Part shown: positions 14,874-32,860 of the stretch, in pieces | Numbering within the stretch: position 1 is the stretch's first letter | How the letters are laid out: every line of letters starts with the position of its first letter | Source: an uncultured bacterium | GTDB lineage: Bacteria > Auribacterota > Erginobacteria > Erginobacterales > Erginobacteraceae | Assembly: GCA_964465735.1 (NCBI GenBank) | Contig: CAYXKT010000001.1 | Location: 10,721 to 74,720 of the forward strand | Reading direction: 5' to 3' | Length of the DNA stretch: 64,000 bases | Made by a program: the position numbers and the translations under genes | Notes under the pieces: model-generated | What the model was told of the DNA's origin: nothing | Seen by the model: only the letters and a program-made list of their open reading frames with translations | Database searches by the model: none

Positions 14874-16076
14874 ATGCGTGCCCTGAAAACAATCGGGTAT
14901 TTTACATTATACTATCTTTCGCAGAGAGCATTTAAGTTTCTGGGATATCTCTGGCCGAAAGACCACCAACTTCTCCTCTTCTCTGGATTGAAGGGGATGC
15001 ATTACAGCGATAACACTAAATATTTATTCGAGAGTTTTGCTCGCAATTATTCTGGTGAGTTCAAAATTGTCTGGATAACCGTTAACAAAAGTTTGCTCAG
15101 GAGCGTCGAAGAAAAGAAAATTTCCGGGGCCCGGATAATTTATCAGTGGTCTCTGGATGGTTTCCTGGCGATCCTTCGGGCTGCGGTGGTTTTTTACCTA
15201 TCGGATTCCAGTGATATCCCTTATGTCTTGTTTTCTCGAAGGACCGTTACCTGCCAGTTGTGGCACGGCATCCCGGTTAAGCGTATATGTCTTCTTAAGC
15301 CACGCTGGAATCATTATCCCCACTGGTTGGTGAAATATTTTTACTTTTCGATGTATTCATACTGGATATGCAGTTCCTCTGTCGACCGACTGGCTACCGC
15401 TCTCTGCGTCGGATTACCGATTGACCGAGTTTTGATTACCGGCTATCCGCGTAATGACTATCTGATTGAGCAAAAACAATCGTCGGCCTGCGATTTACTG
15501 GATCGTTTTCCCTACTTGCGGAAGAAAATAATCCTATATGCCCCTACGTGGCGGCAAAACAGTATTGTCCGTTTTTTCCCATTCTTCGATTATTCCCTGG
15601 GAAGAATCAACGAGTTTCTGGAGGGATCCGATGCCTTTATCTTGTTGCGTGGGCATAGATATGAACGCAGGGAAATCGGAGCCATCGATTATGATGCTTT
15701 TATTGGAGATCGGATACTTGACGCATCGAAAAGCATCTTCGAGGATGTTCAAGAATTATTGCCCCACGTTGATATTTTGATTAGTGATTATTCTGGGGTC
15801 TGGGTGGATTACCTGCTCCTGAATCGCCCGATCGTATTTGCCCCTTACGATTTGGAGGAGTTCAAGGTGGAAACCGGCTTGCTTTATAACTATGACTTCG
15901 TCACCCCCGGTCCGAAGGTTGCCACGACCGAAGAACTGATCAAGGCTCTTCGAGAATATATCCACCATCCTGAGAAAGATTCAGAGAGACGGCAATTAAT
16001 CAAAGGTCTATTCCACCAGTATGAAGATGGCCGCTCATACGAGCGGATATACGAAATCGTTAAACGGATAACCTGA
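14874..16076 (+). CDS. CDP-glycerol glycerophosphotransferase family protein (TagF/TagB-like)
   Basis: 400 aa with the ILYAPTWR motif and a C-terminal Glyphos_transf-like region. Confidence 0.75.
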   Translation: MRALKTIGYFTLYYLSQRAFKFLGYLWPKDHQLLLFSGLKGMHYSDNTKYLFESFARNYSGEFKIVWITVNKSLLRSVEEKKISGARIIYQWSLDGFLAILRAAVVFYLSDSSDIPYVLFSRRTVTCQLWHGIPVKRICLLKPRWNHYPHWLVKYFYFSMYSYWICSSSVDRLATALCVGLPIDRVLITGYPRNDYLIEQKQSSACDLLDRFPYLRKKIILYAPTWRQNSIVRFFPFFDYSLGRINEFLEGSDAFILLRGHRYERREIGAIDYDAFIGDRILDASKSIFEDVQELLPHVDILISDYSGVWVDYLLLNRPIVFAPYDLEEFKVETGLLYNYDFVTPGPKVATTEELIKALREYIHHPEKDSERRQLIKGLFHQYEDGRSYERIYEIVKRIT

Positions 16077-16093: not shown

Positions 16094-17131
16094 ATGAAAA
16101 TCTTGGTGGAAATTGCGCAACAGACCTGTGTCCAGTTTTTTAAGAATATTATCTCGACCTTGAAGAGTCGCGGGCACGAAGTTCAGGTTCTGAGCCGCGA
16201 GCGCGAATGCACCGTGGAATTGCTCAATGAGTATGGCATCGATCATTCTGTCATCAGCAAGTTCACCCCGGGTAAGTATAATTTGTTAACGGAGCTATTG
16301 GTCAGGGATTACAAAATTTGGAAGGCGGGTCGTTCTTTTCAGCCCGACTTGGTTTTAACCGCCAGCATTGCTGGTGTTCACGCGGCTAAGCTATTGCGAG
16401 TTCCCTCCCTATTGCAGAATGACAATGGAAGATCGGCTGGCTTGCTCCACCGGTTGATGGTCCCGCTTGCCACATATGTTTTGACCCCAGATTGCCAGAA
16501 CGAGGATTACGGTTCCGGCCATATTAAATATCCCGGATACAAGGAACTGGCTTATCTCCATCCCGCTAATTTCACCCCGGATTCATCCGTCCTCCAGGAA
16601 CTCGGAATTAAAGCCGGGGAAAGATTATTTATCCTTCGGTTTACCAGTCTTCAGGCTTGTCACGATGCTGGGCGGAAAGGGATGAGTTATGAGCTAAAAA
16701 ACCGGATGATTGAATTATTGCATACCCGGGGCAGGGTATTTATTTCATCCGAAGGAGTTTTGCCGGCGGAATGGGAGAAATTTCGCCTTACATTAAGCCC
16801 CGGGAAAATCCATAGCGCACTTTACTATGCCGATCTCTATGCTGGTGATAGCGGGACAATGGCTTCCGAATCATCGGTCCTGGGAACCCCAGGGATATTT
16901 ATGCTCTCTTTTTCAGGGACGTTGTATTATCTCAAGGAACTGGAAGAAAGGTACGGGTTGCTGTATCAATTTCGACATAATCAGGAAGAAGAATGTATGG
17001 CGCTTGTCCGAAACCTGTTGGATATGAAGAACTTGAAAGCGGCGTGGGCTGAAAAGCGGCAAATAATGCTGGGAGACAAGGTCGATGTCGCGGATTATTT
17101 TGTGAAGAAAATTGAAACGGTTTCGATATGA
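16094..17131 (+). CDS. DUF354-family GT-B-like protein
   Basis: 345 aa. MKILVEIAQ, SRGHEV, YYADLYAGDSGTMASESSVLGTPGI. Confidence 0.55.
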   Translation: MKILVEIAQQTCVQFFKNIISTLKSRGHEVQVLSRERECTVELLNEYGIDHSVISKFTPGKYNLLTELLVRDYKIWKAGRSFQPDLVLTASIAGVHAAKLLRVPSLLQNDNGRSAGLLHRLMVPLATYVLTPDCQNEDYGSGHIKYPGYKELAYLHPANFTPDSSVLQELGIKAGERLFILRFTSLQACHDAGRKGMSYELKNRMIELLHTRGRVFISSEGVLPAEWEKFRLTLSPGKIHSALYYADLYAGDSGTMASESSVLGTPGIFMLSFSGTLYYLKELEERYGLLYQFRHNQEEECMALVRNLLDMKNLKAAWAEKRQIMLGDKVDVADYFVKKIETVSI

Positions 17132-18093
17132 AGCCAGCCGGAAAAAGATTGGGCAGGGTCGTTATTCCATACCTTTTGCCATTGGTGGTGGGCGTGCTGG
17201 CGGCTATATATTTCTCACGGAATTATGAGCAGTTCCGGCAGATTAAAGTTATTTCCTGCTGGTGGTTCATTTTTCTGGTAGCGAGCTCACTGGCTACCAT
17301 AGTTCCTGCCGCCCTGATTTTGCGGAATATACTTCGGTTTTTTCAGGTTAACCTGGGTTTTTGGGAATCGGTCGGCCTGGTCTTTATTACCGGGATGGGA
17401 AATTATATTGTACCGTACGTTGGTGGTGTCGGACTGCGGGCGACCTATTTGAGGAAACGCTATAACCTCCCATTGGGATATTTTGCCGGAACTGCGGGGG
17501 GGGCGGTTTTGCTCTCCACCCTGCTTAACTCTATCATCGGCCTGGTAATGGTCTGCTATCTGTACTTTACCAGGCAAATGTTCAATCCGGTTATCTTGCT
17601 TCTGTTTGTGGCGTTCATTGCGATGGTGGCGGTTTTCATCCTGATGCCAATGAAGGGATTCAAGAGCGAGAATAGGTTGTTGCTGAAAATGAATCAAGTC
17701 TGGGAGGGGTGGAAAATAATCCGTTCTCAGCGCCGAGCGGACCTAATCGCCCTTTTATTTTACGCGGCACTCTCCTCCGTGGTTGGAATTTTAGTAACTT
17801 ATTCTTCATTCCGAGTTATTACGGAATTCGTTTCCCCCGCCGCCGCCGCGATAATTTCGGCGATGGCGGCATTGAGCCATAAAATTAGTGTTACTCCAGC
17901 CGGCCTGGGAATTCGTGAGCTGGTGATTGTGTTCACTTCACAAGCATTGGGATATCTTTTGGTGGTAAATGTTTCCGTTGCGCTTATTCAGAGGTTGGTT
18001 TCCGCAGGTATTGTTTTTATCGGAGGTGGCATATCAAGTTATCTATTATCGCGAACGGTACTTGAATCTCCGCCGGTCGATAAATCCGTATAA
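17128..18093 (+). CDS. Flippase-like membrane protein (lysylphosphatidylglycerol-synthase TM region/UPF0104 family)
   Basis: 321 aa with ~8 TM helices. Four-base start overlap with the DUF354 gene. Contains a G8 tract at 17496..17503. Confidence 0.5.
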   Translation: MKPAGKRLGRVVIPYLLPLVVGVLAAIYFSRNYEQFRQIKVISCWWFIFLVASSLATIVPAALILRNILRFFQVNLGFWESVGLVFITGMGNYIVPYVGGVGLRATYLRKRYNLPLGYFAGTAGGAVLLSTLLNSIIGLVMVCYLYFTRQMFNPVILLLFVAFIAMVAVFILMPMKGFKSENRLLLKMNQVWEGWKIIRSQRRADLIALLFYAALSSVVGILVTYSSFRVITEFVSPAAAAIISAMAALSHKISVTPAGLGIRELVIVFTSQALGYLLVVNVSVALIQRLVSAGIVFIGGGISSYLLSRTVLESPPVDKSV

Positions 18094-18140: not shown

Positions 18141-19910
18141 ATGATAATGAAGATATTAAGTAATGAATTGGCCGTGGCTCTGCCGAGCGGATGGAGTTTG
18201 GCCAAATCCGGGCGCTTAATTATTATTGTTCTGACCCTGCTGGCCTTATCACTCAGGGTTTACGGGATAAATTATTATTCATATGGCGACGAGCATTACC
18301 ACATATATAACTCCCTGGCATTAGCGACCGGTCAGCTTCCGGGAAACTTTCACCGAATCGCGCTTTTTTTCTTCTATGGGATTTTCTATTTCGTGGGATG
18401 GATGTTTGGGTTTTTCCGGGATCCAGCGGTGTTTATCGGAACATATTTTTCCCAAATGCACATATTCTACTTTGTGGGCCGTTTTTTTGAGACTCTGGCC
18501 GGTACAGCGTGCGTCCCCCTTCTCTATCTTCTAGGAAAAAAGATGTTTTCCCGAATGACCGGATTTATTGCCGCTTTCTTTCTGGCGGTCAGCCCGGTCT
18601 CGGTGGAGATCTCTCAAATTGCTCGCGGCCAGGCGCTCTGCCTGTTGTTGATAATCGTGGCTATGTATTTTTCCTATACGGCGATTGATGGCAAGGGAAA
18701 GAACCTTCGGTATGTATTCTCCGGTCTTTGCTTCGGTGCTGCGCTCTCTATTCGGATATACGTATTGATCATTCTGATTCCGCTGGTTTGTTTCTACATA
18801 AAGGAAAGGTCATTATTCTTGGTTTCTCAACCCGGGAATCACGGTGGAATTCTTCGGCTGCTGCAGATGCGCATATTCAGTCGTTTGTTTCTCAGTCTTG
18901 GATTATGGTTATTTATCGGTTTCGCCATTCTCGCTTACGGAGTGTCTGCTCCGCGTATATTTGCAAGATTTCAGCCTTATGTAGCCGGTCATATTTATGA
19001 TTTGGCGACCGGAACGGCGGAAGAAAAGTTATATGTAGGTGCCGATGTTAATAATTCGTTTCAATACTATTTGACAGAAGGTCTCAGCCGGGGCTTGGGC
19101 CTTCCCTTATATATATATTGTTCCCTGGCAATATTTATCGGATTAATGAAGTGGAGAAATAGAAATTATCCGGCATTGATTTTTTGTGTAATATTGTACC
19201 TGGCAGTTATGGGCCGAGGTGCCATCGCTGCCGTACGATATCTATTCCCATTGTTGCCTGCGCTTTTTCTTGTTGCTGGAGATGTGCTTTCCGAAGGGAG
19301 CAGGCGTTTTGGGTTTTCACAACGGCACCGGAATATTCTCATTATTGTGCTTGTTGGGATAATTGCCTATCCAGCCTTGAGCATAGTGAATAATCGGAAC
19401 AAGCTGAATCGAAAACCAACTACCAAGGATTTAGCCCAGGAGTGGATATTCTCGAATCTTCCCGACGGAACGAGGATTGCGGTAGAGAGTATGGGGTACC
19501 GAGGGCCGGACTTAAAGCTGACCCCAGTAATCGATTATTGGATTTATAACCTTGGTGATGAGGATTTAAGGGTGTTATTGAATGAAAGGATAGATCAAGG
19601 CCAACCTTCGTTCGCCCTGAAGCATTTTATTGCTCACCGGCCCCATCCAAAATATTTCACTCGCACAATATCGATCAGGGAGGTAATTGACATTCGGGAA
19701 CTGATTGATGAGGGTTATCAATACATAGTTACCTGCTCCGGAAATCGAGATGTCTATGAGCAGGAGATAACCCGAGATAGATACCCGGAGCATTATGCTT
19801 CCAGAGTTGGTTTCTACCAGTGGCTGGAGAAAGTCGGACTCTTGGTTAAGAAATTTACGCCGGGGCCAGAATCTCCGGGTGACCGCATCGATATATATAA
19901 AATCAGGTGA
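18141..19910 (+). CDS. GT-C-fold membrane glycosyltransferase (PMT/ArnT/GT39-like), intact paralog
   Basis: 589 aa, polytopic. Conserved YGINYYSYGDEHYH...GQLPGN N-terminal loop. The parent of the 5' fragments at 6599 and 13925. Confidence 0.6.
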   Translation: MIMKILSNELAVALPSGWSLAKSGRLIIIVLTLLALSLRVYGINYYSYGDEHYHIYNSLALATGQLPGNFHRIALFFFYGIFYFVGWMFGFFRDPAVFIGTYFSQMHIFYFVGRFFETLAGTACVPLLYLLGKKMFSRMTGFIAAFFLAVSPVSVEISQIARGQALCLLLIIVAMYFSYTAIDGKGKNLRYVFSGLCFGAALSIRIYVLIILIPLVCFYIKERSLFLVSQPGNHGGILRLLQMRIFSRLFLSLGLWLFIGFAILAYGVSAPRIFARFQPYVAGHIYDLATGTAEEKLYVGADVNNSFQYYLTEGLSRGLGLPLYIYCSLAIFIGLMKWRNRNYPALIFCVILYLAVMGRGAIAAVRYLFPLLPALFLVAGDVLSEGSRRFGFSQRHRNILIIVLVGIIAYPALSIVNNRNKLNRKPTTKDLAQEWIFSNLPDGTRIAVESMGYRGPDLKLTPVIDYWIYNLGDEDLRVLLNERIDQGQPSFALKHFIAHRPHPKYFTRTISIREVIDIRELIDEGYQYIVTCSGNRDVYEQEITRDRYPEHYASRVGFYQWLEKVGLLVKKFTPGPESPGDRIDIYKIR

Positions 19911-20741: not shown

Positions 20742-20790
20742 ACCTGTTACGCTGTTTTCGTCAGAGTGAGAAAAGGAGGATAAGGTTGCT

Positions 20791-22398
20791 ATGAGCAAGT
20801 TTAAACAATTCCGCCAGATGCTTAATTCCGGGAACCTCGAGTTTATTTGTGAGGCGCACAACGCCATAAGCGCTCGGGTGGTGGAGGAAGCGGGTTTCAA
20901 GGGGATCTGGGGAAGCAGCCTGACCATCTCTGCTGCTCTGGGGGTGAGAGACAGCAACGAGGCCAGCTGGACCCAGTTATTGGAAGTTATCGAGTTTATG
21001 AGTGACGCGACCACCGTACCGTTGCTCTTCGATGCCGATACGGGTTTTGGCAATTTCAATAATGTGCGCCGACTGGTCCGAAAACTGGAACAGAGGAATG
21101 TGTCCGCGATGTGCATCGAGGATAAGCTCTTTCCGAAGAAGAATAGCTTTATTGCCAGCGAACGCCAACCGCTGGCCGAGATCGATGAGTTTGCCGGCAA
21201 GATCAAGGCGGCTAAGGATAGCCAGTCCGACCCGAATTTCTCCGTGATCGCCCGGGTGGAAGCGTTTATCGCCGGCTGGGGGTTGGGCGAAGCTATGAAA
21301 AGAGCTGAGGCCTATCACCAGGCCGGGGCGGACGGGATATTGATTCACAGCAAAATATCCAAGCCGGATCAGGTCCTGGCTTTTATGAAGGAATGGGGTG
21401 ATCGGTTGCCGGTGGTGATCGTCCCCACCAAGTATTATACCACCCCGACCGAAGTCTTCGAAGAGGCCGGCTTTAGTCTGGTGATCTGGGCAAATATGAT
21501 TCTGCGCAGTTCTTTGAAAGCGATGAGAGAAACTGCTGAGACACTGGCTCGGGAGAGATCATTGTTAAACATCGTGGATGGGATTGCTCCCCTGGCTGAT
21601 GTTTTTCGTCTTCAGGAGGCGGAAGAACTGGAAGAAGCGGAAAAGTTATACCTTCCGGGGTTTGCCGAGAAGACCCACGCGGTTATCCTGGCTGCTTCCC
21701 AGGGGGTGGAACTCGGTGTTCTGACCCAGGATAAGCCGAAAGCCCTTCTGGAGATCTCCGGTCAGCCGCTGCTGAAGAGACAGATCGAAATTCTCAACGA
21801 GATCGGAATCAAAGATATTACCGTGGTCCGGGGTTTCAAAAAGGAGAAGATCGATTTCCCCAACCTCCATTACGTTGATAACGACGAATACGACCGGACT
21901 CTGGAGGTCTTTTCCCTATATAAGGGAATACAGGGGATTGAGGACAAGGCAATGGTTTGCTACGGGGATATTATGTACCGGAAATTCATTCCCTCCAGCC
22001 TGCTGGAAGCGGAAGGAGATTTCGTGGCTATGGTGGACGCCGACTGGCGTTCGGGCCGGGCGAAGGTGCGCTACACCGATTTCGTCAGTTGCGACCAACC
22101 TTATCAGCGGAGAATGCTGGAACAGTCGGTGGAGATGAAGAAGATGAGCACCGACCTTGAGGAGAAAGATATCTGTGGTGAATGGGTCGGTATGTTGAAA
22201 CTTTCGCGGTCCGGCGTCCAGTTTCTCCAGGGTTTGTTGACTGAACTCTCCGAAGAAGATGGATTTCGGAGCTTGCGGATGGCTGATCTCTTCAACGAGA
22301 TTATCCGCCGTGGCAAGATTATCCGGGTTGTCTATATCCGAGGTCACTGGGTGGATGTGGATGACATAAAGGATCTTAATGCCGCCGGGGCGTTTTAG
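20791..22398 (+). CDS. ppm: Phosphoenolpyruvate phosphomutase fused to a C-terminal sugar-nucleotidyltransferase domain (LicC/PntC-like)
   Basis: N-terminal ~290 aa are isocitrate-lyase/PEP-mutase family ([15 protein letters not shown] motif). C-terminal ~230 aa are an NTP-transferase fold. Good RBS (aaaaggagga). Confidence 0.85.
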
Positions 22399-22490
22399 TT
22401 CACAGCGAAGTTTTTTAATGCCGCTGTTTAGCAGAAAAACCAAGGCTGGGAAAGAGCATTGCGTCCGGCCAGTTGTACCTAAATTTTAAT

Positions 22491-23645
22491 ATGATCAAGG
22501 CGGAACAATTCATCTCGGAATGCATTCGGCTGGGTTACGACTTCTGGGCCGGTGTGCCCTGTTCGATCTTGACCCCCCTGATCAACTGCTCCATCTCCCA
22601 TCCGGAGGTTGACTATGTTGGCGCTGCGAGTGAGGGTGAGGCGGTGGCTATTGCCATCGGAGCTCACCTGGCCGGCAGGAAGGCGGTTGTAAACTGCCAG
22701 AACTCTGGACTGGGGAATATGGTCAACCCGTTAACCAGCCTGATCCATCCTTTCCGGATTCCATTTTTGATGATAGTTACCCTCCGCGGCGAACCGGGTA
22801 TCAAGGACGCTCCCCAGCATACTTTTATGGGTTCGATCACCACTGATCTGCTTGATCTTCTCCAGATACCCTGGGAGATAATGCCGGAAGATACCAGGCA
22901 AATCCCGGCCGCCGTCAACCGGGCCGATTCAAGTATGGGTGACACGGGATTCCCGTATGCCTTCGTTATGCGGAAAGCTGGAATGGAGCCGAGCCCGCTG
23001 GGTAAAGTTGCCTGTCCGCCATCCTGTACATATTTTAGCCCACAAGGGGAATGCTTGATTCCCGCCGGAAGCAGAATGAAGAGGTTGGATGCCGTCAGAA
23101 TTATCCGAGATCATCTGGATCCGGAGGATTTGATGGTGGGAACCACTGGCAAAACCAGCCGGGAGCTTTTCGCCCTGGGCCACCGTCCCAACCAGTTCTA
23201 TGTGGTCGGAGGTTTGGGCTGCGCGGCCGGCATTGGCCTGGGTTTGAGTCTCAACCTTGGGGAATGCCGGGTGGCGGTCCTGGACGGTGATGGCGGAGTA
23301 TTGATGAAGATGGGGACGCTGGCCACGATCGGATTTTATCGCCCCCCCGGGTTGATCCATATCGTGTTGGACAACGAGGCTCACGAATCCACCGGGGGGC
23401 AGGGGACTTGTTCGTCGGGGATAGATTTTGCCGCAATCGCTGCGGCCTGTTCGTATCGGGCGGTTTTCCGCGCTGACACTGCTGGTTCCCTGGCCGAAGC
23501 GGTCAGAGAAGCGAAGCGATTGGAAGGGCCGGTGATGATCCACGTCAAGATCGGCCTTGGCTCCGACCCCGCTCTTCCCCGGCCGGATCGCAGTCCGAAA
23601 GAATACAAGGAGGAATTTCAGAGGTTTATCCGAGATGAAAGCTGA
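22491..23645 (+). CDS. ppd: Phosphonopyruvate decarboxylase (ThDP-dependent)
   Basis: FWAGVPCSIL N-terminus with ThDP-binding GDG and N-x-x-H motifs. Immediately downstream of ppm. Confidence 0.85.
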   Translation: MIKAEQFISECIRLGYDFWAGVPCSILTPLINCSISHPEVDYVGAASEGEAVAIAIGAHLAGRKAVVNCQNSGLGNMVNPLTSLIHPFRIPFLMIVTLRGEPGIKDAPQHTFMGSITTDLLDLLQIPWEIMPEDTRQIPAAVNRADSSMGDTGFPYAFVMRKAGMEPSPLGKVACPPSCTYFSPQGECLIPAGSRMKRLDAVRIIRDHLDPEDLMVGTTGKTSRELFALGHRPNQFYVVGGLGCAAGIGLGLSLNLGECRVAVLDGDGGVLMKMGTLATIGFYRPPGLIHIVLDNEAHESTGGQGTCSSGIDFAAIAAACSYRAVFRADTAGSLAEAVREAKRLEGPVMIHVKIGLGSDPALPRPDRSPKEYKEEFQRFIRDES

Positions 23646-24783
23646 TTATTTCAACCCGGTGAAGCTGAAAATCGGGCGGGGATCTCTTCGAGATATTTTT
23701 AGCCTGTTGGGAGGTAGGACCGCCCTGTTGGTAACTACCACCGGAGCGTTAAAAAGGGGGTTGGGGCGGAGAATAGAGGAGTTGTGCGGAGGCTTGGTGG
23801 TTCACATCACTGACAGGACGGTATCCAACCCGACGATTTCCTCGATTGAAGAATGCTACGAAGAGATCCGGGGGTATGATTTCGAGGTGATAATTGGCCT
23901 GGGCGGAGGGAGTGTTCTCGATACAGCCAAGGTCGTGGCTTATCTCTCCGGACTGAACTTGGAACAGGGCTGGCTCGGATATTATTTCCGGGAGAAGGTG
24001 GCAAAAGCTTGCGGGGGCGCTCCCCGGCCAGTACTGGCCATACCTACCACAGCCGGTACCGGATCGGAGGTAACTTCCTGGGCCACAGTCTGGGACGAGA
24101 AGTTGAAAAAAAAGTATTCGCTTTCGGATGATCTGTTATATCCGGAGTGGGCTCTTCTGGATCCATCCTTGACGGAATCTCTGCCTTACGAGGTAACCCT
24201 GTCTGGTAGTCTCGATGCGCTGTCGCATTCTATGGAGGCCGTCTGGAACAGGAATGCCAACCCGGTCTCAACTGAACTGGCGCTGCGGTCGGTGGAGATG
24301 ATAATGGCGGTCTGGAATGATAACTTCCGGGAGCGCTACGCGGACCGAGAATCACGGGAGAAACTTCAGCTTGCCTCACTGCTGGCCGGACTGGCATTCA
24401 GCAACACTAAAACCGCACTGGCACACTCGATCTCATATCCCCTTACTTCTCTTCTGGGGATACCTCACGGCCTGGCCTGCGGGTTTACCCTTCCGGAGAT
24501 ATTGCTCCATAACGGGGAAGCCGCAGAGGAGATAGTATCGCCACTGGCGCTGGCAATGGGCTGCTCTTCAGTTTATGAGGCGCGGGAATGCCTATACGAA
24601 GTATTTAAAAGAATTGGGGTGCCGGAGTTCCTGGAGGGGTTTGTCAAGAGCCCCGACATTCTGGACGGAATCCAGGCAGAGTATATCTCTCCGGGCCGGG
24701 CGGATAATAATATCGTTGATGTGCAACAGGCCGAGGCTGAACAGATTGTCGCTTCGGCGTTCAGGGAACTGACCGGGGATTGA
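23635..24783 (+). CDS. Iron-containing alcohol dehydrogenase; likely phosphonoacetaldehyde reductase (PhpC/FomC-like, 2-hydroxyethylphosphonate forming)
   Basis: Fe-ADH family (GGGSVLDTAKVVA, metal-binding His-rich motifs). 11-nt overlap with ppd. No aminotransferase is present in the cluster. Confidence 0.6.
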   Translation: MKADYFNPVKLKIGRGSLRDIFSLLGGRTALLVTTTGALKRGLGRRIEELCGGLVVHITDRTVSNPTISSIEECYEEIRGYDFEVIIGLGGGSVLDTAKVVAYLSGLNLEQGWLGYYFREKVAKACGGAPRPVLAIPTTAGTGSEVTSWATVWDEKLKKKYSLSDDLLYPEWALLDPSLTESLPYEVTLSGSLDALSHSMEAVWNRNANPVSTELALRSVEMIMAVWNDNFRERYADRESREKLQLASLLAGLAFSNTKTALAHSISYPLTSLLGIPHGLACGFTLPEILLHNGEAAEEIVSPLALAMGCSSVYEARECLYEVFKRIGVPEFLEGFVKSPDILDGIQAEYISPGRADNNIVDVQQAEAEQIVASAFRELTGD

Positions 24784-24788
24784 ACGCA

Positions 24789-25490
24789 ATGAAAGCAATC
24801 ATACTGAATTCAGGAGTCGCCAGTCGTCTGAAACCGCTGACTGATGAAATGCCCAAATGCTTGCTGGAGGTTAAGGGGGAGACGCTCCTGGGGAGGCAGT
24901 TGAAATGCCTGGAAAAATGCGGAATAACGGAACTCATCATCACCACTGGCCCGTTCGAAGAGAAAATTGTTAACTTTGTTGGGGACAATTTCTCCGAATT
25001 GCGGACAGCATTCATCAGAAATCCTCGCTATGCCTCCACCAACTATATTTACTCGATCTGGTTGGCTCGAGACCTCCTTGACGACGATATCTTGCTGCTT
25101 CACGGCGATATGTTATTCGATTGCTCACTGTTGCAGAGAATCGTCGCTAAGGAGTCCGGGAACCACGTTCTGGTCAACAAAGTGATCGAGCCTCCGGAAA
25201 AAGATTTTAAGGCCCGGATAGAAAAGGAAAGAGTAATGGAAATCGGTGTCAACCTTTCCGGACCGAATGTATATTTTTGCGCCCCGATATATAGGTTCTC
25301 CCGGCAAGGTTTCCGGGACTGGCTCAAGGAAATCAAGATTTGTCTTGACGAAGGCCAGTTCAATTGTTACGCGGAGGAGGCCTTTAACAGAATATCCAGC
25401 GGCTTGAAACTGGATCCAATTTATTACAGCACTGAAGAGTGTATGGAAATTGATTCTCCGGAAGATTTGCAATTGGCAAATAGTAGGTAA
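24789..25490 (+). CDS. Nucleotidyltransferase (LicC-like CTP:phospho-headgroup cytidylyltransferase family)
   Basis: KAIILNSGVASRLKPLTDEMPKCLL N-terminal NTP-binding motif, typical of LicC/PntC. Confidence 0.6.
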   Translation: MKAIILNSGVASRLKPLTDEMPKCLLEVKGETLLGRQLKCLEKCGITELIITTGPFEEKIVNFVGDNFSELRTAFIRNPRYASTNYIYSIWLARDLLDDDILLLHGDMLFDCSLLQRIVAKESGNHVLVNKVIEPPEKDFKARIEKERVMEIGVNLSGPNVYFCAPIYRFSRQGFRDWLKEIKICLDEGQFNCYAEEAFNRISSGLKLDPIYYSTEECMEIDSPEDLQLANSR

Positions 25491-25495
25491 CTTCA

Positions 25496-27058
25496 ATGAA
25501 AAGAGCCAAATTATTTTTAGATTGTTATCACCCGTTGCTCTTCTCTCTTGCCCCCATACTTTTCTTATACTCCCAGAATATTGATCAGGGGCCTTTCATC
25601 CGCATTATTTCCCCAGCACTAATTGCTATCGGGTTTACAGCTTTATTTATGCTGTTATTGAATCTTGTTGTAAGAAACAAATGGAAAAGCTCACTGATTG
25701 TTTCAATATTCATTATTATTTTCTTCTCTTATGGGCACGCCTATAATCTAATTCAGAATTTTGGATTTCAGTTGTTAGGGATAAATATCGGTCCTAACAA
25801 AATAATTACCGCTTTGACCTTAATTATATTTTTCCTACTCTCCTTCTTAACCCTCAAAACCTGTCGTCGACTTGACAGGTTTACTAAGTTGCTTAATGGA
25901 GTTGCAGTGATCTCTGTGCTCCTGCCTTTGATTAATATTGCTGTCTACCAGTTTGGTCGAGGGGGGAGTATCGAGGAAATCTCCAGCGAGGATCATCTGG
26001 TTGTTAGGGATGCTGGCTCGGGGAAGGTGGCCGGTCGGCCCGATATTTATTATATTATTTTAGATGCCTATGGTCGGGCGGATACTCTGAAGGAGTTATA
26101 CGATCACGACAACTCCGAGTTCCTGGATTACTTGCGGGATAAAGGATTTTTTATCGCCGAAGAAAGTATGGCCAATTATAGCTTCACTGCTCCTAGTATT
26201 GCGTCTACGCTGCAGATGAGTTACCTCGATTCGCTACTCGGTTCCGGACAAACTGCGCAGGTGAGAGAGTTGTGGAATAATTCTCCCGTAGTCGAGTTCT
26301 TAAAGAGTCAGGGTTATACATACGTATTTCTACCGACCGCCTCTGCGTTTTGGTACGTGAAAGATATGGACGTCCGGTTGGAGAGTAAGTTTCCGATCAG
26401 CGATTTTCTCAGCGAACTCATTAATACCACTCCTCTGACGTATATGTTGCCAGTTATCTATTCTCGCTATCAACAGCATCGAACTTCCATCCTTTACGCT
26501 TTCAATGCCTTGCGGGATCTGTCTTATTTGGGATCTCCCAAGTTCGTATACGCGCATTTTGGGGTGCCTCATCAGCCTTTCGTTTTTGACGAAGATGGAT
26601 CTCCGATTGAGTCTGATCGGCCATACACGGTAAGTAATTTCCTCACACCCCAGCAAGGTGGGATAGCGGGAAGAGGAGAATACCTGGAGGGTTATCGGAA
26701 GCAGATAGTTTTTACTAATAATAAGGTAAAGGAACTGGTTGATGGTCTTCTGGCCCTCCCCGGTGCCCCCCCCGTAATAATACTGCAGGGAGATCACGGG
26801 CCGGCCGGCTATCTCGATACTTACAACAACATCGGGAATAGCCACCTCAAGGAAAGGATGACCAATCTCAACGCCTACTATCTTCCCGGTGCTGAGAACC
26901 AGCTTTATGAAGGGATCACCCCGGTCAACACCTTCAGGCTGATCTTCAACCAATACTTTGGGACTGAGTATGAACTGCTTCCGGATCGGAGTTATATCTT
27001 CAACGAGGATCACCCATACGTATTCATCGATGTGACCGATCGTATTTCTGGACGGTGA
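25496..27058 (+). CDS. Membrane-anchored alkaline-phosphatase-superfamily transferase (LTA synthase/sulfatase-like); candidate phosphonate/phospho-headgroup transferase
   Basis: Five N-terminal TM helices plus an extracytoplasmic sulfatase-like domain (IYYIILDAYGR, QGDHGP). C8 tract at 26766..26773. Confidence 0.6.
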   Translation: MKRAKLFLDCYHPLLFSLAPILFLYSQNIDQGPFIRIISPALIAIGFTALFMLLLNLVVRNKWKSSLIVSIFIIIFFSYGHAYNLIQNFGFQLLGINIGPNKIITALTLIIFFLLSFLTLKTCRRLDRFTKLLNGVAVISVLLPLINIAVYQFGRGGSIEEISSEDHLVVRDAGSGKVAGRPDIYYIILDAYGRADTLKELYDHDNSEFLDYLRDKGFFIAEESMANYSFTAPSIASTLQMSYLDSLLGSGQTAQVRELWNNSPVVEFLKSQGYTYVFLPTASAFWYVKDMDVRLESKFPISDFLSELINTTPLTYMLPVIYSRYQQHRTSILYAFNALRDLSYLGSPKFVYAHFGVPHQPFVFDEDGSPIESDRPYTVSNFLTPQQGGIAGRGEYLEGYRKQIVFTNNKVKELVDGLLALPGAPPVIILQGDHGPAGYLDTYNNIGNSHLKERMTNLNAYYLPGAENQLYEGITPVNTFRLIFNQYFGTEYELLPDRSYIFNEDHPYVFIDVTDRISGR

Positions 27059-27586: not shown

Positions 27587-28954
27587 ATGGCCGCCATTGA
27601 GATAGATAAAAGCTCGGATAATACCGGAGGCGTGTTTGTCAAGAAGAGCGCCTTTACCCTCTTTACCCGAGTGATTCTTATTGTCGTCTCATTTGGCGCC
27701 AGTGTGGTAACGGCCAGACTATTAGGACCGGCGGGGAAGGGGCAATTGTCCGTGATTCTTTTGGCCCCGACCTTGTTGATGAACCTGGGCGGGTTAGCGA
27801 TTACCTCCTCCAATGTATTCCTCATCGGGAGAAGGAAACCAAAGCTCAACGAAATATTTTGGAATTCGACTCTCTTCTCCATTGTATTGGGTATCCTGCT
27901 GATCTTAATATTTCTTATATTTCGTCCCTGGCTTGACTCTTTTTTCAGAAATGCGGACCCAGTTCTGATCACGATTGCGTTAGCCACAGTGCCCTTCAGC
28001 TTATTTTACGTCTATGGCATATTTATTCCTCTGGGGGAGAGAAAAGTTGTAGCTTACAATATCCTGAAGGTGATTGAGCCGGTTGTCTATTTTATGGCTC
28101 TGGTCATTTTTATCTGGATATTGAAGTTGGAAATAATTGGCGGTCTGGTGGCATATATATTTGGCATCCTCGGTGGCTGCATAGCCTTGCTGGTCTATGC
28201 GAAAAGACATATCCCTCTCAAATTTCAATTAAACTTAAAACTGATCAAGGAAGGCTGCGTTTATGGCGCGAAGTGCCACGTGGAAAGCGCCGCCTGGTTT
28301 TTTATCCGAAGAATATCGGTTTTGCTGATCAATAAATATATGGAACCCAAGGATGTCGGTTGGTATGTGGTGGCAGTCGCTTTGAGCGAAGCTCTCTGGC
28401 ATCTTCCGATGTCGATTTCCACGGTCTTGTTTCCGGAAATTTGTTCCAAGCATAATGCGTGCAACCAGAAAGAGATGGCTTCACGAGTATGCAGGAATTC
28501 GATATTTATTCTTGTCGTGAGCGCGATCATATTAGGAGCGTTCGCGTATTTATTGATAAATTTCTTTTATGGACGGGAGTACTCCCCCAGCATTAATGCT
28601 CTTTTACTCCTCCTTCCGGGCTCGGTATTGTTAGGCGCGATGCTGGTTTTAAGCACATATATGAGGGGGATTAATCGGCCTATGGTGGCGAGCCTGATTG
28701 CGTGCGCTATGCTTGTCTGCACCGTAATTACCAATATTATTTTAATCCCACTGATGGGTATCTACGGTGCGGCACTGTCTTTGTCCGTTACGGCGGCCAT
28801 AGGCTTTGTCCTTATCGTCGTTATCTACGCGAAAATGACTGGAGAGAAAGCTGCCCAGTTTCTTATTATCGGCCGGGAAGATTTTCAATATTATCGCGAT
28901 ATGTATTCAAGACTAATCGTTTCGAGATTTAAAAAAGATGGAAAATCTATTTAA
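27587..28954 (+). CDS. Wzx-like polysaccharide flippase (MOP superfamily)
   Basis: 455 aa, ~12-14 TM helices, typical O-unit flippase architecture. Confidence 0.65.
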   Translation: MAAIEIDKSSDNTGGVFVKKSAFTLFTRVILIVVSFGASVVTARLLGPAGKGQLSVILLAPTLLMNLGGLAITSSNVFLIGRRKPKLNEIFWNSTLFSIVLGILLILIFLIFRPWLDSFFRNADPVLITIALATVPFSLFYVYGIFIPLGERKVVAYNILKVIEPVVYFMALVIFIWILKLEIIGGLVAYIFGILGGCIALLVYAKRHIPLKFQLNLKLIKEGCVYGAKCHVESAAWFFIRRISVLLINKYMEPKDVGWYVVAVALSEALWHLPMSISTVLFPEICSKHNACNQKEMASRVCRNSIFILVVSAIILGAFAYLLINFFYGREYSPSINALLLLLPGSVLLGAMLVLSTYMRGINRPMVASLIACAMLVCTVITNIILIPLMGIYGAALSLSVTAAIGFVLIVVIYAKMTGEKAAQFLIIGREDFQYYRDMYSRLIVSRFKKDGKSI

Positions 28955-30023
28955 CCGGCCGCTAATCAGAAAGGCCATTGATTCCCTCCCGGAGCATAAC
29001 CCCTGGATAAAAAAGCTCAGGGTCGGAGCCAAGGCACTTCTTTTCCGGAGACGAATTATCCCGGAGAAGAGGATTTTATTCGCCGGGGTCGAAGATGCGA
29101 TTTATGAACGGATCTTGATAATTGGGCCGGGGCGGGATGAGGTAGCGGTAACTTCTTCCTACACTGCGGTAAGTCCGGGGACAGAGAAGGGATATTATCT
29201 TGATTTGCCGAATTTTTTCCAGAAAAGACCCTACGTCCCTGGTTACAGCGGCTGCGGATGGATCAGGTCAAGGGGGAAGGCGGTGTCATCGTTCAAGAAA
29301 GGCGATCTGGTCGCCGGAATACTCAAGCATAGTAACGTGAATATTCTTGCCGCCGGCGAGGTTGTTCCCGTACCGGAAGGTCTGAATCCCCTCTATGCCG
29401 CCTTTGTGACACTGGGGGTCATTGCCTTGACCGGTTTGCGGAGTGCTTCAATTGAGAAAGGAGATAAAGTCGCGATTATGGGCCAGGGGATTCTGGGGCA
29501 ACTCCTGAACCAACTGGTCCGGTTGACGGAAGTGCAGAGTATCTGTGCCGTCGCGCGCTCGCAAAGCAAAAAGGAGATGGCACTCAAAAGCGGTGTTGAC
29601 GAGTTCATATCTTCGAGTGATCAATCCCTGGCCTTGAAATCAGTTCAGGCGAATGTGGTAATTGACAGCACGGGTAACCTGGAAGGCTTCGAAGATGCGC
29701 TCAAGATAGTAATCCCCGGTGGCCGAGTGGTGATGTTAGGGAGTATTCCTGAATATGCCAGAGATAGCAACTGGGCGAAGACAGTGGTAGATAAATGTAT
29801 TGAAGTTCGAGGTGCCCACGTTCGGAATCTGGAAGAGGAAGGGTTGAGTTATCGCTCTGAAGCGGCCCGTTTCCTTAACCTGTTGGCTGAGAAGAAAATA
29901 AAAATGGACCACTTGATCTCCGACATCTATAAGCCGGAAGATGCGCCGGGAATTTATCGGCGTTTTGGCGCTGACAGTAGAGATATGGTGGGAGTGGCGA
30001 TTGAATGGAGGAAAAGGGATTGA
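28938..30023 (+). CDS. Zinc-binding medium-chain dehydrogenase/reductase family protein
   Basis: MDR-like GxGxxG Rossmann core (IMGQGILGQLL). Confidence 0.55.
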   Translation: MENLFNRPLIRKAIDSLPEHNPWIKKLRVGAKALLFRRRIIPEKRILFAGVEDAIYERILIIGPGRDEVAVTSSYTAVSPGTEKGYYLDLPNFFQKRPYVPGYSGCGWIRSRGKAVSSFKKGDLVAGILKHSNVNILAAGEVVPVPEGLNPLYAAFVTLGVIALTGLRSASIEKGDKVAIMGQGILGQLLNQLVRLTEVQSICAVARSQSKKEMALKSGVDEFISSSDQSLALKSVQANVVIDSTGNLEGFEDALKIVIPGGRVVMLGSIPEYARDSNWAKTVVDKCIEVRGAHVRNLEEEGLSYRSEAARFLNLLAEKKIKMDHLISDIYKPEDAPGIYRRFGADSRDMVGVAIEWRKRD

Positions 30024-30925
30024 GAATTACCATTACTGAAAAAATACGAGATCGCGCCAAGGGCAGCAAGTTAGCCCGAAAAATTCTCTTTCCAGCGATA
30101 TTTTTCCGAGACTTAATCCTGGAAAGGAGGGAGAAAGTATTTGATAAGTTTTATCTTGATGCATTTCAATTTGTGGAATTAGGGAGCCTTGTGGTCCGGG
30201 TCCCGGACTTCGAAGGTTCATTTGAGGTAGATGCCCGCTCTGACACTTTAAAAAGATTATTGAAATATAAACATTATGAGCCTTACCTGGCGGAAATCGC
30301 GAAAAAGCATATAAACCCGGAAAGAGATGTTCTGGACATCGGAGCCAACATAGGTCTTTTTTCGACGCTGGCCGCAAAAAATATCTCCAGTCGGAATAAG
30401 GTATTATCGGTTGAACCGACACCTCTGGCGCTAAAATACCTTCGGGGGAATATCCAGAGAAATAATATTCAAGAATCGGTGATTATTTATGAAGGGGCGG
30501 CAACAGATAACCCGGGTAACCGCCTGATTAATATTATTCCCGGTAAGGAAGAATACTCCAGTTTAAGCAATATTGTCCATCCGCCTGCTTTGGGTAAGAA
30601 ATTCGAGGCGCTCGAAGTCCAGAGTGATACCGTGGATAATCTGGTTAGTAAGTTCAACTTGAAACCGGGTTTTATTAAGATCGATACCGAGGGCGGAGAA
30701 TATAAAGTTCTAAAAGGAGCGCTGGCTACAATAACAAAATTAAAACCAGTGATTGTCTCGGAATTGATAGATAATTTATTGCAAAGCTTTGGCGATTCAT
30801 CAGCTAAAGTTATCAATTTATTAGAAGATAATGGATATAATGTGTTTAATGCCAGGCAGCTTGATTTGCCGGTCCAGGTACCTTTTGACGGAGAGATTTT
30901 AGCTCTTCCGGCAATGGAAAGATAA
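30005..30925 (+). CDS. FkbM-family methyltransferase
   Basis: VLDIGANIGLFS and the IKIDTEGGEYKVLKGA hallmark. Confidence 0.7.
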   Translation: MEEKGLRITITEKIRDRAKGSKLARKILFPAIFFRDLILERREKVFDKFYLDAFQFVELGSLVVRVPDFEGSFEVDARSDTLKRLLKYKHYEPYLAEIAKKHINPERDVLDIGANIGLFSTLAAKNISSRNKVLSVEPTPLALKYLRGNIQRNNIQESVIIYEGAATDNPGNRLINIIPGKEEYSSLSNIVHPPALGKKFEALEVQSDTVDNLVSKFNLKPGFIKIDTEGGEYKVLKGALATITKLKPVIVSELIDNLLQSFGDSSAKVINLLEDNGYNVFNARQLDLPVQVPFDGEILALPAMER

Positions 30926-30977: not shown

Positions 30978-32114
30978 ATGGTGGAGGGGTATCTGGATAA
31001 TACCGTGAAAACCGAAAAACAAATAGGGGTGGCCCTGGTTGGCTGCGGGGCGATCTCTTATGCGAACGCCGAGGCGATCCGCATCTCCCAATTAGCTGAT
31101 CTGATCTACGCGGTTGATGTCAATTATTCCTCGGCCGAGAAATTGGGAAAAAAATACGGAGTTGCCTACACGGCTCATTTGGAGGAGGCCATCTCCAACC
31201 CTTTGGTTGATGTTGTTTTTATCTGTACCCCGCATTATCTTCACGCTCCAATCGCTGAACAGGCGGCTCAGGCGGGGAAACACGTAATCGTTGAGAAACC
31301 AATGGGGGTGAGTTTAGCCGATGCCCGGAAAATACAGGCTGTCTGCGCGGAGAAGCAAGTTTTGCTGTCGGTCTGTTATTGTATGAGATATTGGTCGGCC
31401 GTCCGGCAGGCCCGGCAGCTTATCGAAGATGGGGGATTGGGAAAGATTCTCGGGACCGAGATGATGATGATCCGGGATCGGAGCGAGAGCTACCTGGGAA
31501 GAAATACCTGGCAGGAAGCGAACCCCAACTGGCACGGTGACCGGGCCCGGGCGGGCGGGGGGATGTTCTTCGATAATTTCTCCCACTACCTGGATTATTT
31601 CCATTTTCTCACCGACCTCGATATCGAATGGATATTTGCCCGGGCCGATACCCGCCTGATCCCGGCGGATGTGGAGGATTCGTTGTTTGCTCTCTGCGGC
31701 TATGAAAACGGAGCTTCCGGGATGGTTCTCTCCGGAAGCACCGTCCGGGGAGCCGGCAAGGAAGGAAGCCTCCGGCCATTGAATTCAATGCAGCGGATCT
31801 GGGGGGAATACGGGCAGATAGTTCTTCAGCCGGATTTTTCTTTTTATTCACTCAAACGGATCGGCGGCTATGCCCCCAATTGCTGGCACCATCTGAGCAA
31901 CTATCGGGGCAAGGCGGCCGGCGCTGGATTGGAAGAGCGACGGAGCTTTGTCGATATGTTCGCCCGGGCGGTTCAGGAAGGCTTGCCCCTGGAGATCACC
32001 GGGGAAGACGGTCTTCGGGTGATGGCTGTGATGGACGCGGTTTATCGATCCTCTGCCGCCGGGTCAAAAGAACCAGTCAAAATCATTCAAACTGCTCAAT
32101 CCGGGTTACTATGA
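30978..32114 (+). CDS. Gfo/Idh/MocA-family NAD(P)-dependent oxidoreductase
   Basis: VALVGCGAISYANAEAI N-terminal Rossmann, and the ICTPHYLHAPIAEQAAQAGKHVIVEKP motif. Confidence 0.8.
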   Translation: MVEGYLDNTVKTEKQIGVALVGCGAISYANAEAIRISQLADLIYAVDVNYSSAEKLGKKYGVAYTAHLEEAISNPLVDVVFICTPHYLHAPIAEQAAQAGKHVIVEKPMGVSLADARKIQAVCAEKQVLLSVCYCMRYWSAVRQARQLIEDGGLGKILGTEMMMIRDRSESYLGRNTWQEANPNWHGDRARAGGGMFFDNFSHYLDYFHFLTDLDIEWIFARADTRLIPADVEDSLFALCGYENGASGMVLSGSTVRGAGKEGSLRPLNSMQRIWGEYGQIVLQPDFSFYSLKRIGGYAPNCWHHLSNYRGKAAGAGLEERRSFVDMFARAVQEGLPLEITGEDGLRVMAVMDAVYRSSAAGSKEPVKIIQTAQSGLL

Positions 32115-32860
32115 TCTTTGCTCTCTGGGAAAATATCTCCGGCGATATTGAGGTGCCGATCTGCGCCTCTCCGGTTGACAACGCCGACGATCCGGCTTCC
32201 AGGGTTATCCTCTTTCCCAGGGAAGAGAAGGCGTCCGATGTTCCGGGTCTCCCTCCTGATTCCGCCTCCGGGCGCCAGGTGGTCTTATCTTCCGCGTTTC
32301 CCGCCCGGTTATTGTTGTCGGCGGTGGTTCTGGCTCAGGCGGTCAAGGTAGTGGATTCTCTATCCCTTCCCTCGAATGTTCTGGTTTTTTCCGAAGGGTT
32401 AATTGGAGAAGCCGTCCGCCTTACCCTGTCCGCGAATGCTATGAATAAGGTGGTGGTTGCCCGGGTAGGTGGCGAAGGAGGAGGGGCCAAGGGCGACGAG
32501 TTAGATCCCTTTGCTCCCGGATTCATCGATTCCTTGAAGACAATTACCGGTGGTCAGGGTTTCCCCGCCGTGGTCCTCGCCTCCGCCCGCCCGGAATTGG
32601 TGAAAAAAGCTCTGGGATGCGCCGGAGTCTTCGGCCAGGTATTCTTTCTGCTTCCGATCGGCGGGAAGGTTTCCGTGGACCTGACCGCGACGGTTAATTT
32701 CAAAAGTTTGATCCTTCGAGGCCGGGATTTCTTTGTTGATCTGGCAACCCTGACCGGCACGGATATCGAGGCGGCGGTGCTCAAAGCCGATTCGCTCCCG
32801 GTTCAACTGCGGGCGGGGATGGCGGAATCAGGATTGAAGATTAAAACTGGTCAGGAATAA
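32113..32860 (+). CDS. Dehydrogenase-like protein (MDR/Rossmann-like, no catalytic N-domain recognised)
   Basis: 249 aa from the ATG at 32113. Weak similarity to the zinc-ADH C-terminal cofactor domain. Confidence 0.35.

Follow-up and report, generated by a model that had tools for sequence, protein, structure and literature searches.

Polysaccharide esters of 2-hydroxyethylphosphonate (HEP) and methylphosphonate are known from the literature to account for much of the phosphonate pool in dissolved organic matter of the sea. Gene clusters for HEP degradation are widespread, which suggests that HEP is also plentiful in other settings. Clusters of the HEP-type (PhpC-type) class account for ~8.5% of the neighbourhoods of phosphoenolpyruvate (PEP) mutase (Ppm). 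Ten PhpC-type cluster families have been described and two of them have isolated products. A HEP conjugate was purified from the exopolysaccharide of Stackebrandtia nassauensis (Yu et al., 2014, as summarised in PMC8942020) and a methylphosphonate adduct was obtained from Nitrosopumilus maritimus (Metcalf et al., 2012, as summarised in PMC8942020). Only a small number of producing clusters have a product assigned to them, and enzymes for the attachment of activated phosphonates to glycans have yet to be identified (for the latter, PMC6697681). Here we describe a 64-kb stretch of DNA from an uncultured bacterium (the window), which carries a five-gene phosphonate cassette at 20791-27058. We read it as a HEP biosynthetic cassette that lies within a surface-glycan operon and runs in the same direction, and we give this reading, along with the pathway set out below, a probability of about 0.72. 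The locus is a further example of the HEP phosphonoglycan clusters and reveals no new chemistry. A preliminary description of this DNA had called such a decorated polysaccharide uncommon, which holds in a relative sense only, given the ~8.5% share of HEP-type neighbourhoods and the HEP exopolysaccharides already isolated. The value of the locus lies in comparative leads. These are a four-gene module of Ppm, phosphonopyruvate decarboxylase (Ppd), PhpC and a second nucleotidyltransferase (NT2) that occurs in bacteria and DPANN archaea, the likely role of NT2 as HEP cytidylyltransferase, and the PF04464 enzymes as candidate phosphonyl transferases.

The HEP phosphonoglycan clusters of Stackebrandtia nassauensis and Glycomyces sp. 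contain, in the published summary of them, the same core of Ppm, Ppd and iron-containing alcohol dehydrogenase (Fe-ADH, here PhpC), no 2-aminoethylphosphonate (AEP) transaminase, and an exopolysaccharide or glycan context. In contrast, the host of our locus is not an actinomycete, its Ppm is fused to a PF12804 domain, and a second nucleotidyltransferase and an EptA-like protein are present; the likeness is one of gene content rather than of a gene-by-gene comparison. The actinomycete polymers reportedly contain O-methylated sugars and a HEP-glycerol ester, which would be in line with the presence of methyltransferases and a TagF-like enzyme in the window. The methylphosphonate cluster of N. 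maritimus has the same Ppm, Ppd and Fe-ADH, and a polysaccharide ester has been proposed as what it makes (as summarised in PMC8942020). Unlike that cluster, the window has no detectable MpnS, and hence the head group should stay HEP. The N. maritimus cluster is also said to hold nucleotidyltransferase and sulfatase-family genes. The fosfomycin proteins Fom1, Fom2 and FomC of Streptomyces follow the same route from Ppm through Ppd and Fe-ADH to HEP and CMP-HEP, with a nucleotidyltransferase fused to Ppm. The fused domain of Fom1 is an N-terminal PF01467 domain, whereas here it is a C-terminal PF12804 domain. Fom3, Fom4 and FomD are missing from the window, and the context is a glycan locus rather than a small-molecule antibiotic cluster. 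Activation with CMP dominates phosphonate tailoring, and clusters with dual nucleotidyltransferases are documented (Rice et al., 2019; PMC6697681). The Pnt pathway of Treponema denticola, Atopobium rimae and Olsenella uli likewise combines a Ppm-fused PF12804 domain with a second LicC-like nucleotidyltransferase one to two genes away, and its CMP-activated phosphonate, which we also predict here, belongs to a cell-surface glycan context (PMC6697681). The Pnt substrate is AEP, formed by an AEP transaminase (AEPT), whereas our locus has PhpC in place of the aminotransferase. The transferases proposed for the Pnt pathway are LicD-like, while the candidates here are a PF04464 enzyme and the EptA-like protein. 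NT2 belongs to a separate clade from the Pnt nucleotidyltransferases and tracks Fe-ADH.

The five cassette genes are encoded on the plus strand, and the preliminary description, which was made from the sequence alone, is borne out on their positions by open reading frames (ORFs), by profile matches and by an independent gene call. Every window ORF of at least 190 aa was scanned against Pfam or NCBIfam profiles, and the E-values of the cassette matches exclude chance. Start sites were taken from a gene caller run on the identical Logan contig (L001), which returned the same genes and starts. The called starts are 22491 for Ppd, 23635 for Fe-ADH, 24789 for NT2 and 25496 for the EptA/MCR-1-like membrane protein (Sulf), while the longest ORFs for Ppd and Fe-ADH begin at 22473 and 23557. 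The first gene (20791..22398) is preceded by a strong AAGGAGG Shine-Dalgarno site and encodes a PEP mutase (aa 1-290; PF13714, 2.4e-61) fused to a LicC-like nucleotidyltransferase domain (aa ~295-535; PF12804, 5.5e-11). Its Ppm part scores 377.6 bits against TIGR02320 (PEP_mutase, cutoff 319.55), and the sister models of the isocitrate-lyase superfamily score lower and fall below their own cutoffs (PnPy hydrolase, 234.9; methylisocitrate lyase, 138.7). The motif EDKx5NS, which the preliminary description had named as a check on Ppm, is present at aa 110-119 and is kept in nearly all of ~120 Ppm homologues. The Ppm part is predicted to convert PEP to phosphonopyruvate. Ppd (22491..23645) follows after a gap of 92 nt, adjacent and non-overlapping; it scores 398.1 bits against TIGR03297 (cutoff 312.5) and has both the N- and the C-terminal thiamine pyrophosphate domains (PF02776 and PF02775). 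The three remaining genes are packed tightly behind Ppd (spacings of -11, +5 and +5 nt for Ppd/ADH, ADH/NT2 and NT2/Sulf), the Fe-ADH gene overlapping the Ppd stop by 11 nt.

The identity of the dehydrogenase decides the head group. The third gene (23635..24783; PF00465, 7e-37) encodes a PhpC-type phosphonoacetaldehyde reductase of the Fe-ADH family, which is probably Zn-dependent. Its best NCBIfam model is TIGR03405 (Phn_Fe-ADH) at 310.9 bits, and the next family, at 168 bits, lies more than 140 bits lower. The nearest solved structure is sulfoacetaldehyde reductase (6jko, 2.5e-49). A 2026 study defined PhpC by Asp/His/His/His metal ligands, by a Lys/Arg clamp and a Thr that bind the phosphonate, and by a Tyr that does not vary among PhpC enzymes and whose place is taken by Phe in sulfoacetaldehyde reductase (PMC13576164). 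The window enzyme carries the metal ligands D194, H198, H264 and H278 and the phosphonate-site residues K160, T260, Y268 and R355, with Lys160 and Arg355 as the clamp; they correspond to Lys157, Thr256, Tyr264 and Arg349 in P. fungorum numbering, an equivalence drawn from spacing and from the 6jko alignment rather than from an alignment to PhpC itself. Y268 is aligned to the Phe of 6jko. Across six orthologues from phosphonate clusters these residues do not change, with the sole exception of H198, which is replaced by Gln in L084, L085 and L011. No aminotransferase, PhnX, PhnY or PhnA was found among the scanned ORFs of the 64 kb, and neither was any relative by sequence of MpnS, HepD or HppE. 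With the PhpC residues in place and the scans of the 64 kb negative for aminotransferase, MpnS and HepD, the best reading of the predicted head group is HEP rather than AEP, in a glycan context, and this agrees with the preliminary description. The conditions that the preliminary description had set for its own refutation did not come true in the window, as the EDKx5NS motif and the PhpC-specific residues are there and no scanned ORF encodes an aminotransferase. Two unannotated soluble proteins (49175-50605 and 50829-52097) were considered as MpnS or HepD and rejected, as neither matched a solved structure by sequence at E <= 0.01. The GC content is 54.7% at 22001-24000, over Ppd and Fe-ADH, against 44-48% in the neighbouring stretches, which suggests a mosaic or horizontally acquired cassette.

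The locus encodes two nucleotidyltransferases, and both match LicC (1jyk; 1e-11 for NT2 and 2.6e-12 for the domain fused to Ppm). NT2 (24789..25490; PF12804, PF00483) also matches the crystallised PntC of T. denticola (Tde-PntC, 6pd1) at 2.6e-10, whereas the fused domain has no match to 6pd1 at E <= 1e-3. The PntC signature is GxG(T/S)Rx4-8PK and includes Arg15 and Lys25. Alanine mutants of the signature Arg and Lys are known to be crippled, and the Arg mutant of Tde-PntC keeps <10% of its activity. In NT2 the signature reads SGVASR-x8-PK, with Ala for the second Gly, and R13 and K23, the equivalents of PntC Arg15 and Lys25, reach a conservation of at least 95% among 121 homologues. The P-loop of the fused domain reads AASQGVEL...PK, so that the PK is kept and Glu307 occupies the canonical Arg position; this variant (AAS[RQ]GxE) is family-wide. 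The preliminary description had taken the fused domain to be of the PntC type, and here it has to be corrected. Characterised PntCs are separate or AEPT-fused enzymes and not Ppm-fused domains (Rice et al., PMC6697681), the Arg is replaced by Glu, and it is NT2 that resembles PntC. A PF12804 fusion is reported for 33% of Ppm enzymes, and some clusters have a further nucleotidyltransferase close by (Rice et al., PMC6697681). We compared eight related loci in which Ppm is fused to a nucleotidyltransferase domain (Ppm-NTase), and seven Fe-ADH-positive, that is HEP-type, loci were found among the relatives. All seven relatives that have Fe-ADH also have a high-scoring NT2 orthologue, and those that do not have Fe-ADH are without one. 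NT2 is most likely the better candidate for a HEP cytidylyltransferase, and CTP-dependent activation of HEP is predicted, because both catalytic residues (Arg and Lys) are retained in NT2, its sequence matches Tde-PntC, and its gene comes after Fe-ADH in all related loci that we examined, the archaeal ones included.

The association of NT2 with Fe-ADH extends further. Three distant NT2 homologues (51-52% identity) were looked up in four genomic contexts, and in all four the gene lies directly after Fe-ADH in a Ppm-Ppd-FeADH cassette. Two of the three proteins come from metagenome-assembled genomes (MAGs) that are named by NCBI as DPANN archaea. Hence Ppm, Ppd, Fe-ADH and NT2 form a conserved four-gene HEP module that is common to bacteria and DPANN archaea. 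In the cassettes of these distant homologues, Ppm has a different, Fom1-like N-terminal PF01467 domain. Two of the contexts (L173 and L176, from MAGs named Woesearchaeota and Nanoarchaeota) contain, at ~330-6720, a B12-radical-SAM gene, a stand-alone PF01467 gene, PF01467-Ppm, Ppd, Fe-ADH and NT2. Both adjoin glycosyltransferase genes, and Wzx and PMT_2 genes are found in L173 only. Since the radical-SAM protein of these loci is Fom3-like, the phosphonate on such an archaeal surface glycan may be a methylated (hydroxypropyl) one.

The pathway that we propose has seven steps, of which the first three are supported by the sequence. Ppm would convert PEP to phosphonopyruvate, Ppd would decarboxylate this to phosphonoacetaldehyde and thereby pull the reaction forward, and the PhpC-type dehydrogenase would reduce phosphonoacetaldehyde to HEP. 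HEP would then be converted to CMP-HEP in the cytoplasm, most likely by NT2. In the fifth step, a cytoplasmic CDP-alcohol-type phosphotransferase may place the phosphonyl group on a lipid-linked glycan, and the best candidate within the window is the enzyme encoded at 14874-16076. The decorated glycan would be flipped by Wzx and finished outside by GT-C enzymes, with its sugars O-methylated by the methyltransferases. Finally, the EptA-like protein on the outside of the membrane might add a further lipid-derived head group or relay HEP from a phosphonolipid.

The candidate for the fifth step (14874..16076, plus strand) is a TagF/TarF-like CDP-alcohol phosphotransferase located 4.7 kb upstream of ppm on the same strand (PF04464, 1.3e-65, 222 bits; best NCBIfam matches TarF and TarL). 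It aligns to TagF of S. epidermidis (3l7i) at 4.6e-24, and His131 and His261 match two TagF His residues (in WHG and RxH), which we take to be the catalytic H444 and H584. It shares the PF04464 fold of TagF, TarF and TarL but lacks their N-terminal membrane-targeting/extension domain, and its putative donor is CMP-HEP in a glycan locus without CDP-glycerol genes. The window scans recovered no genes for the synthesis of CDP-glycerol or CDP-ribitol (TagD or TarIJ type). Because CMP-HEP closely resembles CDP-glycerol, a PF04464 enzyme would fit the missing cytoplasmic transfer step, and we regard such enzymes as more plausible HEP transferases than Sulf. A PF04464 gene is found immediately upstream of Ppm-NTase in six of the eight related loci (L011, L083, L084, L085, L171 and L172). 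Five of these genes form a tight clade (48-90% identity), and the L083 copy is an outlier. The recruitment of at least two PF04464 lineages beside Ppm argues for a real functional need, though not for the use of CMP-HEP by the window copy in particular. A full-text search of the phosphonate papers available to us found no mention of PF04464 or TagF, a negative that carries little weight. Fragments of a further TagF-like PF04464 gene are present at 436-1296; it is likely a pseudogene or split gene, because its ORF 883-1296 covers profile positions 251-365 only. In L171 (9001-13358), Ppm-NTase has PF04464 and TylF methyltransferase genes upstream and no Ppd, and it is followed by methylmalonyl-CoA-mutase-like and radical-SAM genes; this locus may represent a different phosphonate branch.

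The fifth cassette gene (25496..27058; PF00884, 4e-08) encodes Sulf. Hydropathy and an AlphaFold2 (AF2) model (pLDDT 84.6) agree on five N-terminal transmembrane helices. A Foldseek search with this model returned E. coli EptC, full-length MCR-1 and EptA as the top matches (E 2e-7, TM 0.40/0.55 for EptC and MCR-1), with soluble sulfatases within an order of magnitude of EptC and MCR-1, and LtaS was not among the top 50. By sequence, Sulf found nothing in the PDB; its identity to the Ept enzymes and MCR-1 is ~12%, and it has no formylglycine motif (C/S-x-P-x-R). An alignment of 39-41 family members showed that D190, H354, H359 and D433 are invariant and that conservation is at least 90% for T231 and H434. 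The AF2 model puts T231 at the N-terminal end of a helix, and the Thr nucleophile and Asp/His ligands are assigned by motif position rather than by a residue-level superposition. So read, Sulf is predicted to share with EptA, EptC, MCR-1 and LtaS the five N-terminal helices, a periplasmic alkaline-phosphatase-fold domain, the Thr nucleophile and the Asp/His ligands. The positive-inside rule and the loop charges place its N-terminus inside and its catalytic domain probably outside the cytoplasm. With its catalytic domain outside the membrane, Sulf should be unable to use CMP-HEP directly, because enzymes of this kind draw their head group from a membrane lipid and not from a nucleotide. The Sulf family comprises at least 5622 proteins. 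In 80 metagenomic loci that encode relatives at 32-43% identity, Ppm, Ppd or Fe-ADH was found in none, and the contexts inspected are ordinary glycan clusters. The family itself is not phosphonate-specific, because none of these 80 loci carries Ppm, Ppd or Fe-ADH. A functional link of Sulf to the cassette is nonetheless likely, a Sulf-family gene being present in the operon of four of the seven HEP cassettes and a different sulfatase adjoining the cassette of L172. The preliminary description was right about a membrane protein of the alkaline-phosphatase superfamily, whereas its likeness to LtaS gave way to EptC, MCR-1 and EptA, and its suggested role in transferring the activated phosphonate does not agree with the predicted extracytoplasmic domain and the 80 Ppm-free loci.

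Several observations weigh against the reading of the locus as a HEP-glycan operon. The score of the Fe-ADH (310.9 bits) is below the TIGR03405 cutoff of 423.7. There are two nucleotidyltransferases with no assigned division of labour, which makes the CMP-HEP step ambiguous. The TagF-like copy of the window is only 23-26% identical to the Ppm-adjacent clade and is non-orthologous to it, and CDP-glycerol or CDP-ribitol could be its usual donor, as in ordinary members of the family. The nearest relatives by Ppm identity (L003, 87%; L083, 85%) are without Sulf and encode a CDP-alcohol phosphatidyltransferase instead. Their gene content favours a route through a lipid in this lineage, and because they swap Sulf for the phosphatidyltransferase, the last (attachment) step differs between lineages. 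Finally, an AT-rich gap of 880 nt and a hairpin-rich spacer of 528 nt may split the block into several transcripts. The gap (19911-20790) lies directly upstream of ppm and contains several promoter-like sites. A weak GNAT-like ORF that starts with GTG (20199-20741) is also found there, behind a short ORF in another frame (20054-20200), and this region may be a frameshifted acetyltransferase remnant. The spacer (27058-27587) separates the EptA-like gene from wzx and holds about eight short GC-rich hairpins with differing stems (27175-89, 27203-22, 27249-63, 27316-34, 27356-73, 27410-22, 27431-53 and 27478-93), several of which are followed by ACATAA-like tails. A known RNA was sought in this array and rejected, as the Rfam matches were sub-threshold only (Acido-Lenti-1, 25.5 bits vs 37). 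A 98-aa antisense ORF in the spacer is probably spurious.

The most serious rival accepts the HEP cassette and holds that the EptA-like and TagF-like proteins add ordinary phosphoethanolamine or glycerol-phosphate, with HEP attached by another enzyme. It draws on the wide occurrence of the Sulf family in Ppm-free glycan loci and on the TagF-like protein of the window, which is a canonical PF04464 member (1e-65) distinct from the Ppm-adjacent clade. However, the placement of PF04464 genes beside Ppm-NTase in six of eight loci and of Sulf-family genes in four of seven HEP cassettes is far above the expectation for unlinked genes, and the TagD or TarIJ type genes that would supply an ordinary donor were not found in the window. 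We consider this explanation fairly unlikely.

A second rival, to which we give somewhat less credence, is that a phosphonolipid is formed first. CMP-HEP would be transferred to diacylglycerol or another lipid, the product flipped, perhaps by the LPG_synthase_TM protein, and HEP moved to the glycan outside by the EptA-like protein, much as EptA handles phosphoethanolamine. The EptA/MCR-1 architecture of Sulf, with its Thr/Asp/His set intact, is what such a relay would call for, and so is the flippase-like PF03706 gene within the block. The recurrence of Sulf-family genes in four of the seven HEP-type operons, the other sulfatase-family gene adjoining in L172 and the CDP-OH_P_transf genes of L003 and L083 point the same way, and sulfatase genes are known from the literature to recur in AEP clusters that are assigned to phosphonolipids. 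Yet a CDP-alcohol phosphatidyltransferase was not found in the window, and among the relatives Sulf and CDP-OH_P_transf substitute for each other and do not co-occur. The Sulf family is, moreover, unlinked to Ppm in the 80 loci and resides in ordinary glycan clusters.

A more far-reaching version of the cytoplasmic PF04464 route can be drawn, and we think it improbable. The PF04464 enzymes beside Ppm-NTase might turn out to be the phosphonyl transferases for which the Pnt pathway has long been searched, using CMP-HEP instead of CDP-glycerol, and a TagF-type polymerase might build a teichoic-acid-like poly-HEP or HEP-glycerol chain or bridge, with the EptA-like enzyme acting on the corresponding phosphonate lipid on the outer side of the membrane. 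Such a phosphonate-ester chain is conceivable because HEP, like glycerol phosphate, has a free hydroxyl.

The genes downstream of the cassette bear on whether HEP is the final head group. A divergent MDR (zinc-ADH-fold) oxidoreductase, probably sugar-tailoring, is encoded at 28938..30023 (plus strand; PF00107, 5e-13), with a quinone oxidoreductase as its best PDB match (44 bits). It is followed on the same strand by an FkbM-family methyltransferase (30005..30925; TIGR01444, 1.7e-28; PF05050, 2.3e-17), a GFO/IDH/MocA oxidoreductase (30978..32114; PF01408, 1.5e-26), a small conserved protein (32111..32860) whose start overlaps the GFO stop (ATGA) and which has faint MDR-like similarity only, and a class I SAM methyltransferase (32882..33649; Methyltransf_25, _23 and _12). 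The MDR gene lies directly after NT2 in L003 and L083, both of which keep the GFO gene, and the C-terminal core of the small protein is kept in L003 (20398-20895; 57% over 76 aa) and L083 (11676-12134), with a gene also called at the equivalent position in L169. The class I methyltransferase is 66% identical to its L003 counterpart, and the FkbM gene also follows the cassette in L011. The block of MDR, GFO, small gene and methyltransferase is therefore kept in L003, and its first three members in L083. The MDR/GFO block is missing from L084, L085, L172 and L011, and because of this the block probably serves sugar tailoring and not phosphonate chemistry. Two other roles for the MDR gene were rejected. 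A PbfG-type HEP dehydrogenase does not agree with its weak, quinone-oxidoreductase-like similarity and with a sequence that has no GHE/Cys zinc-ligand pattern. Similarly, TarI/TarJ-like synthesis of a CDP-alditol together with NT2 is at odds with their distribution, as NT2 tracks Fe-ADH in all the loci and the MDR gene is found only in L003, L083 and the window.

These genes are the basis for a third rival, in which HEP is a mere intermediate and the final head group is methylated, hydroxylated or oxidised by nearby or distant genes. Several known pathways do pass through HEP (literature), the operon offers two methyltransferases, the MDR-like enzyme and the GFO oxidoreductase, and the archaeal NT2 cassettes have B12-radical-SAM genes reminiscent of Fom3. 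We find this improbable. The window has no relative by sequence of MpnS, HepD or HppE and no B12-radical-SAM gene near the cassette, its sole radical-SAM gene being of the SPASM type and 34 kb off. L084, L085, L172 and L011 keep the core without MDR and GFO, and methyltransferases of the FkbM and class I kinds typically act on sugar hydroxyls. A catabolic or salvage role, in which the PhpC homologue would oxidise HEP for phosphorus acquisition, is very improbable, since PhpC homologues do work in HEP degradation clusters but such clusters pair phpC with phnX or phnY-phnA and are without ppm and ppd (literature), whereas here Ppm and Ppd are present and PhnX, PhnY and PhnA were not found in the window scans.

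The cassette is part of a block of 16 genes on one strand (14874-34836) with short or overlapping gaps, in which flippase, glycosyltransferase and methyltransferase genes flank it, as the preliminary description had seen for the first two. Between the TagF-like gene and ppm are genes for a GT-B-like glycosyltransferase of the DUF354 type (16094..17131; PF04007, 3.4e-10; weak Glyco_transf_4), a flippase-like membrane protein (LPG_synthase_TM; 17128..18093; PF03706, 1.6e-16) and a GT-C type (PMT_2) membrane glycosyltransferase (18147..19910, start per the L001 call; PF13231, 1.9e-12) with multiple predicted transmembrane helices. The flippase-like protein has ~8-9 predicted hydrophobic segments and scores 24 bits against the TIGR00374 flippase-like domain, below the cutoff of 43.2. 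Downstream of the cassette, a Wzx-type polysaccharide flippase (27587..28954; PF01943, 2.8e-20; PF13440, 1.8e-15) precedes the MDR gene, and a GT2 glycosyltransferase (33892..34836; PF00535, 2.6e-39) is the last member of the block. All of these genes are on the plus strand.

The wider window has four PMT_2/GT-C genes (2930-4492, 18147-19910, 53372-54610 and 57445-59193), which points to heavy extracytoplasmic use of polyprenyl-phosphate-sugar donors. It also contains a SecB-like gene, and no tRNA or rRNA was found in the 64 kb. Two pieces that look like mobile-element scars lie between an asparagine-synthase block and the glycan operon. One is a fragment of a group II intron RNA (D1-D4; 11080-11217; Rfam RF02003, 57.9 bits), and the other is the C-terminus of a truncated Transposase_29 (12297-12725). 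The intron fragment, the SecB-like gene and the strong AAGGAGG site before ppm indicate that the host is a bacterium. Toxin-antitoxin or defence-like genes flank the glycan locus (34921-35400, 36448-37560 and 63031-63492), and this set consists of an Unstab_antitox protein, an ImmA/IrrE-like protein that joins a helix-turn-helix (HTH) domain to an M78 peptidase, and a PIN-domain protein.

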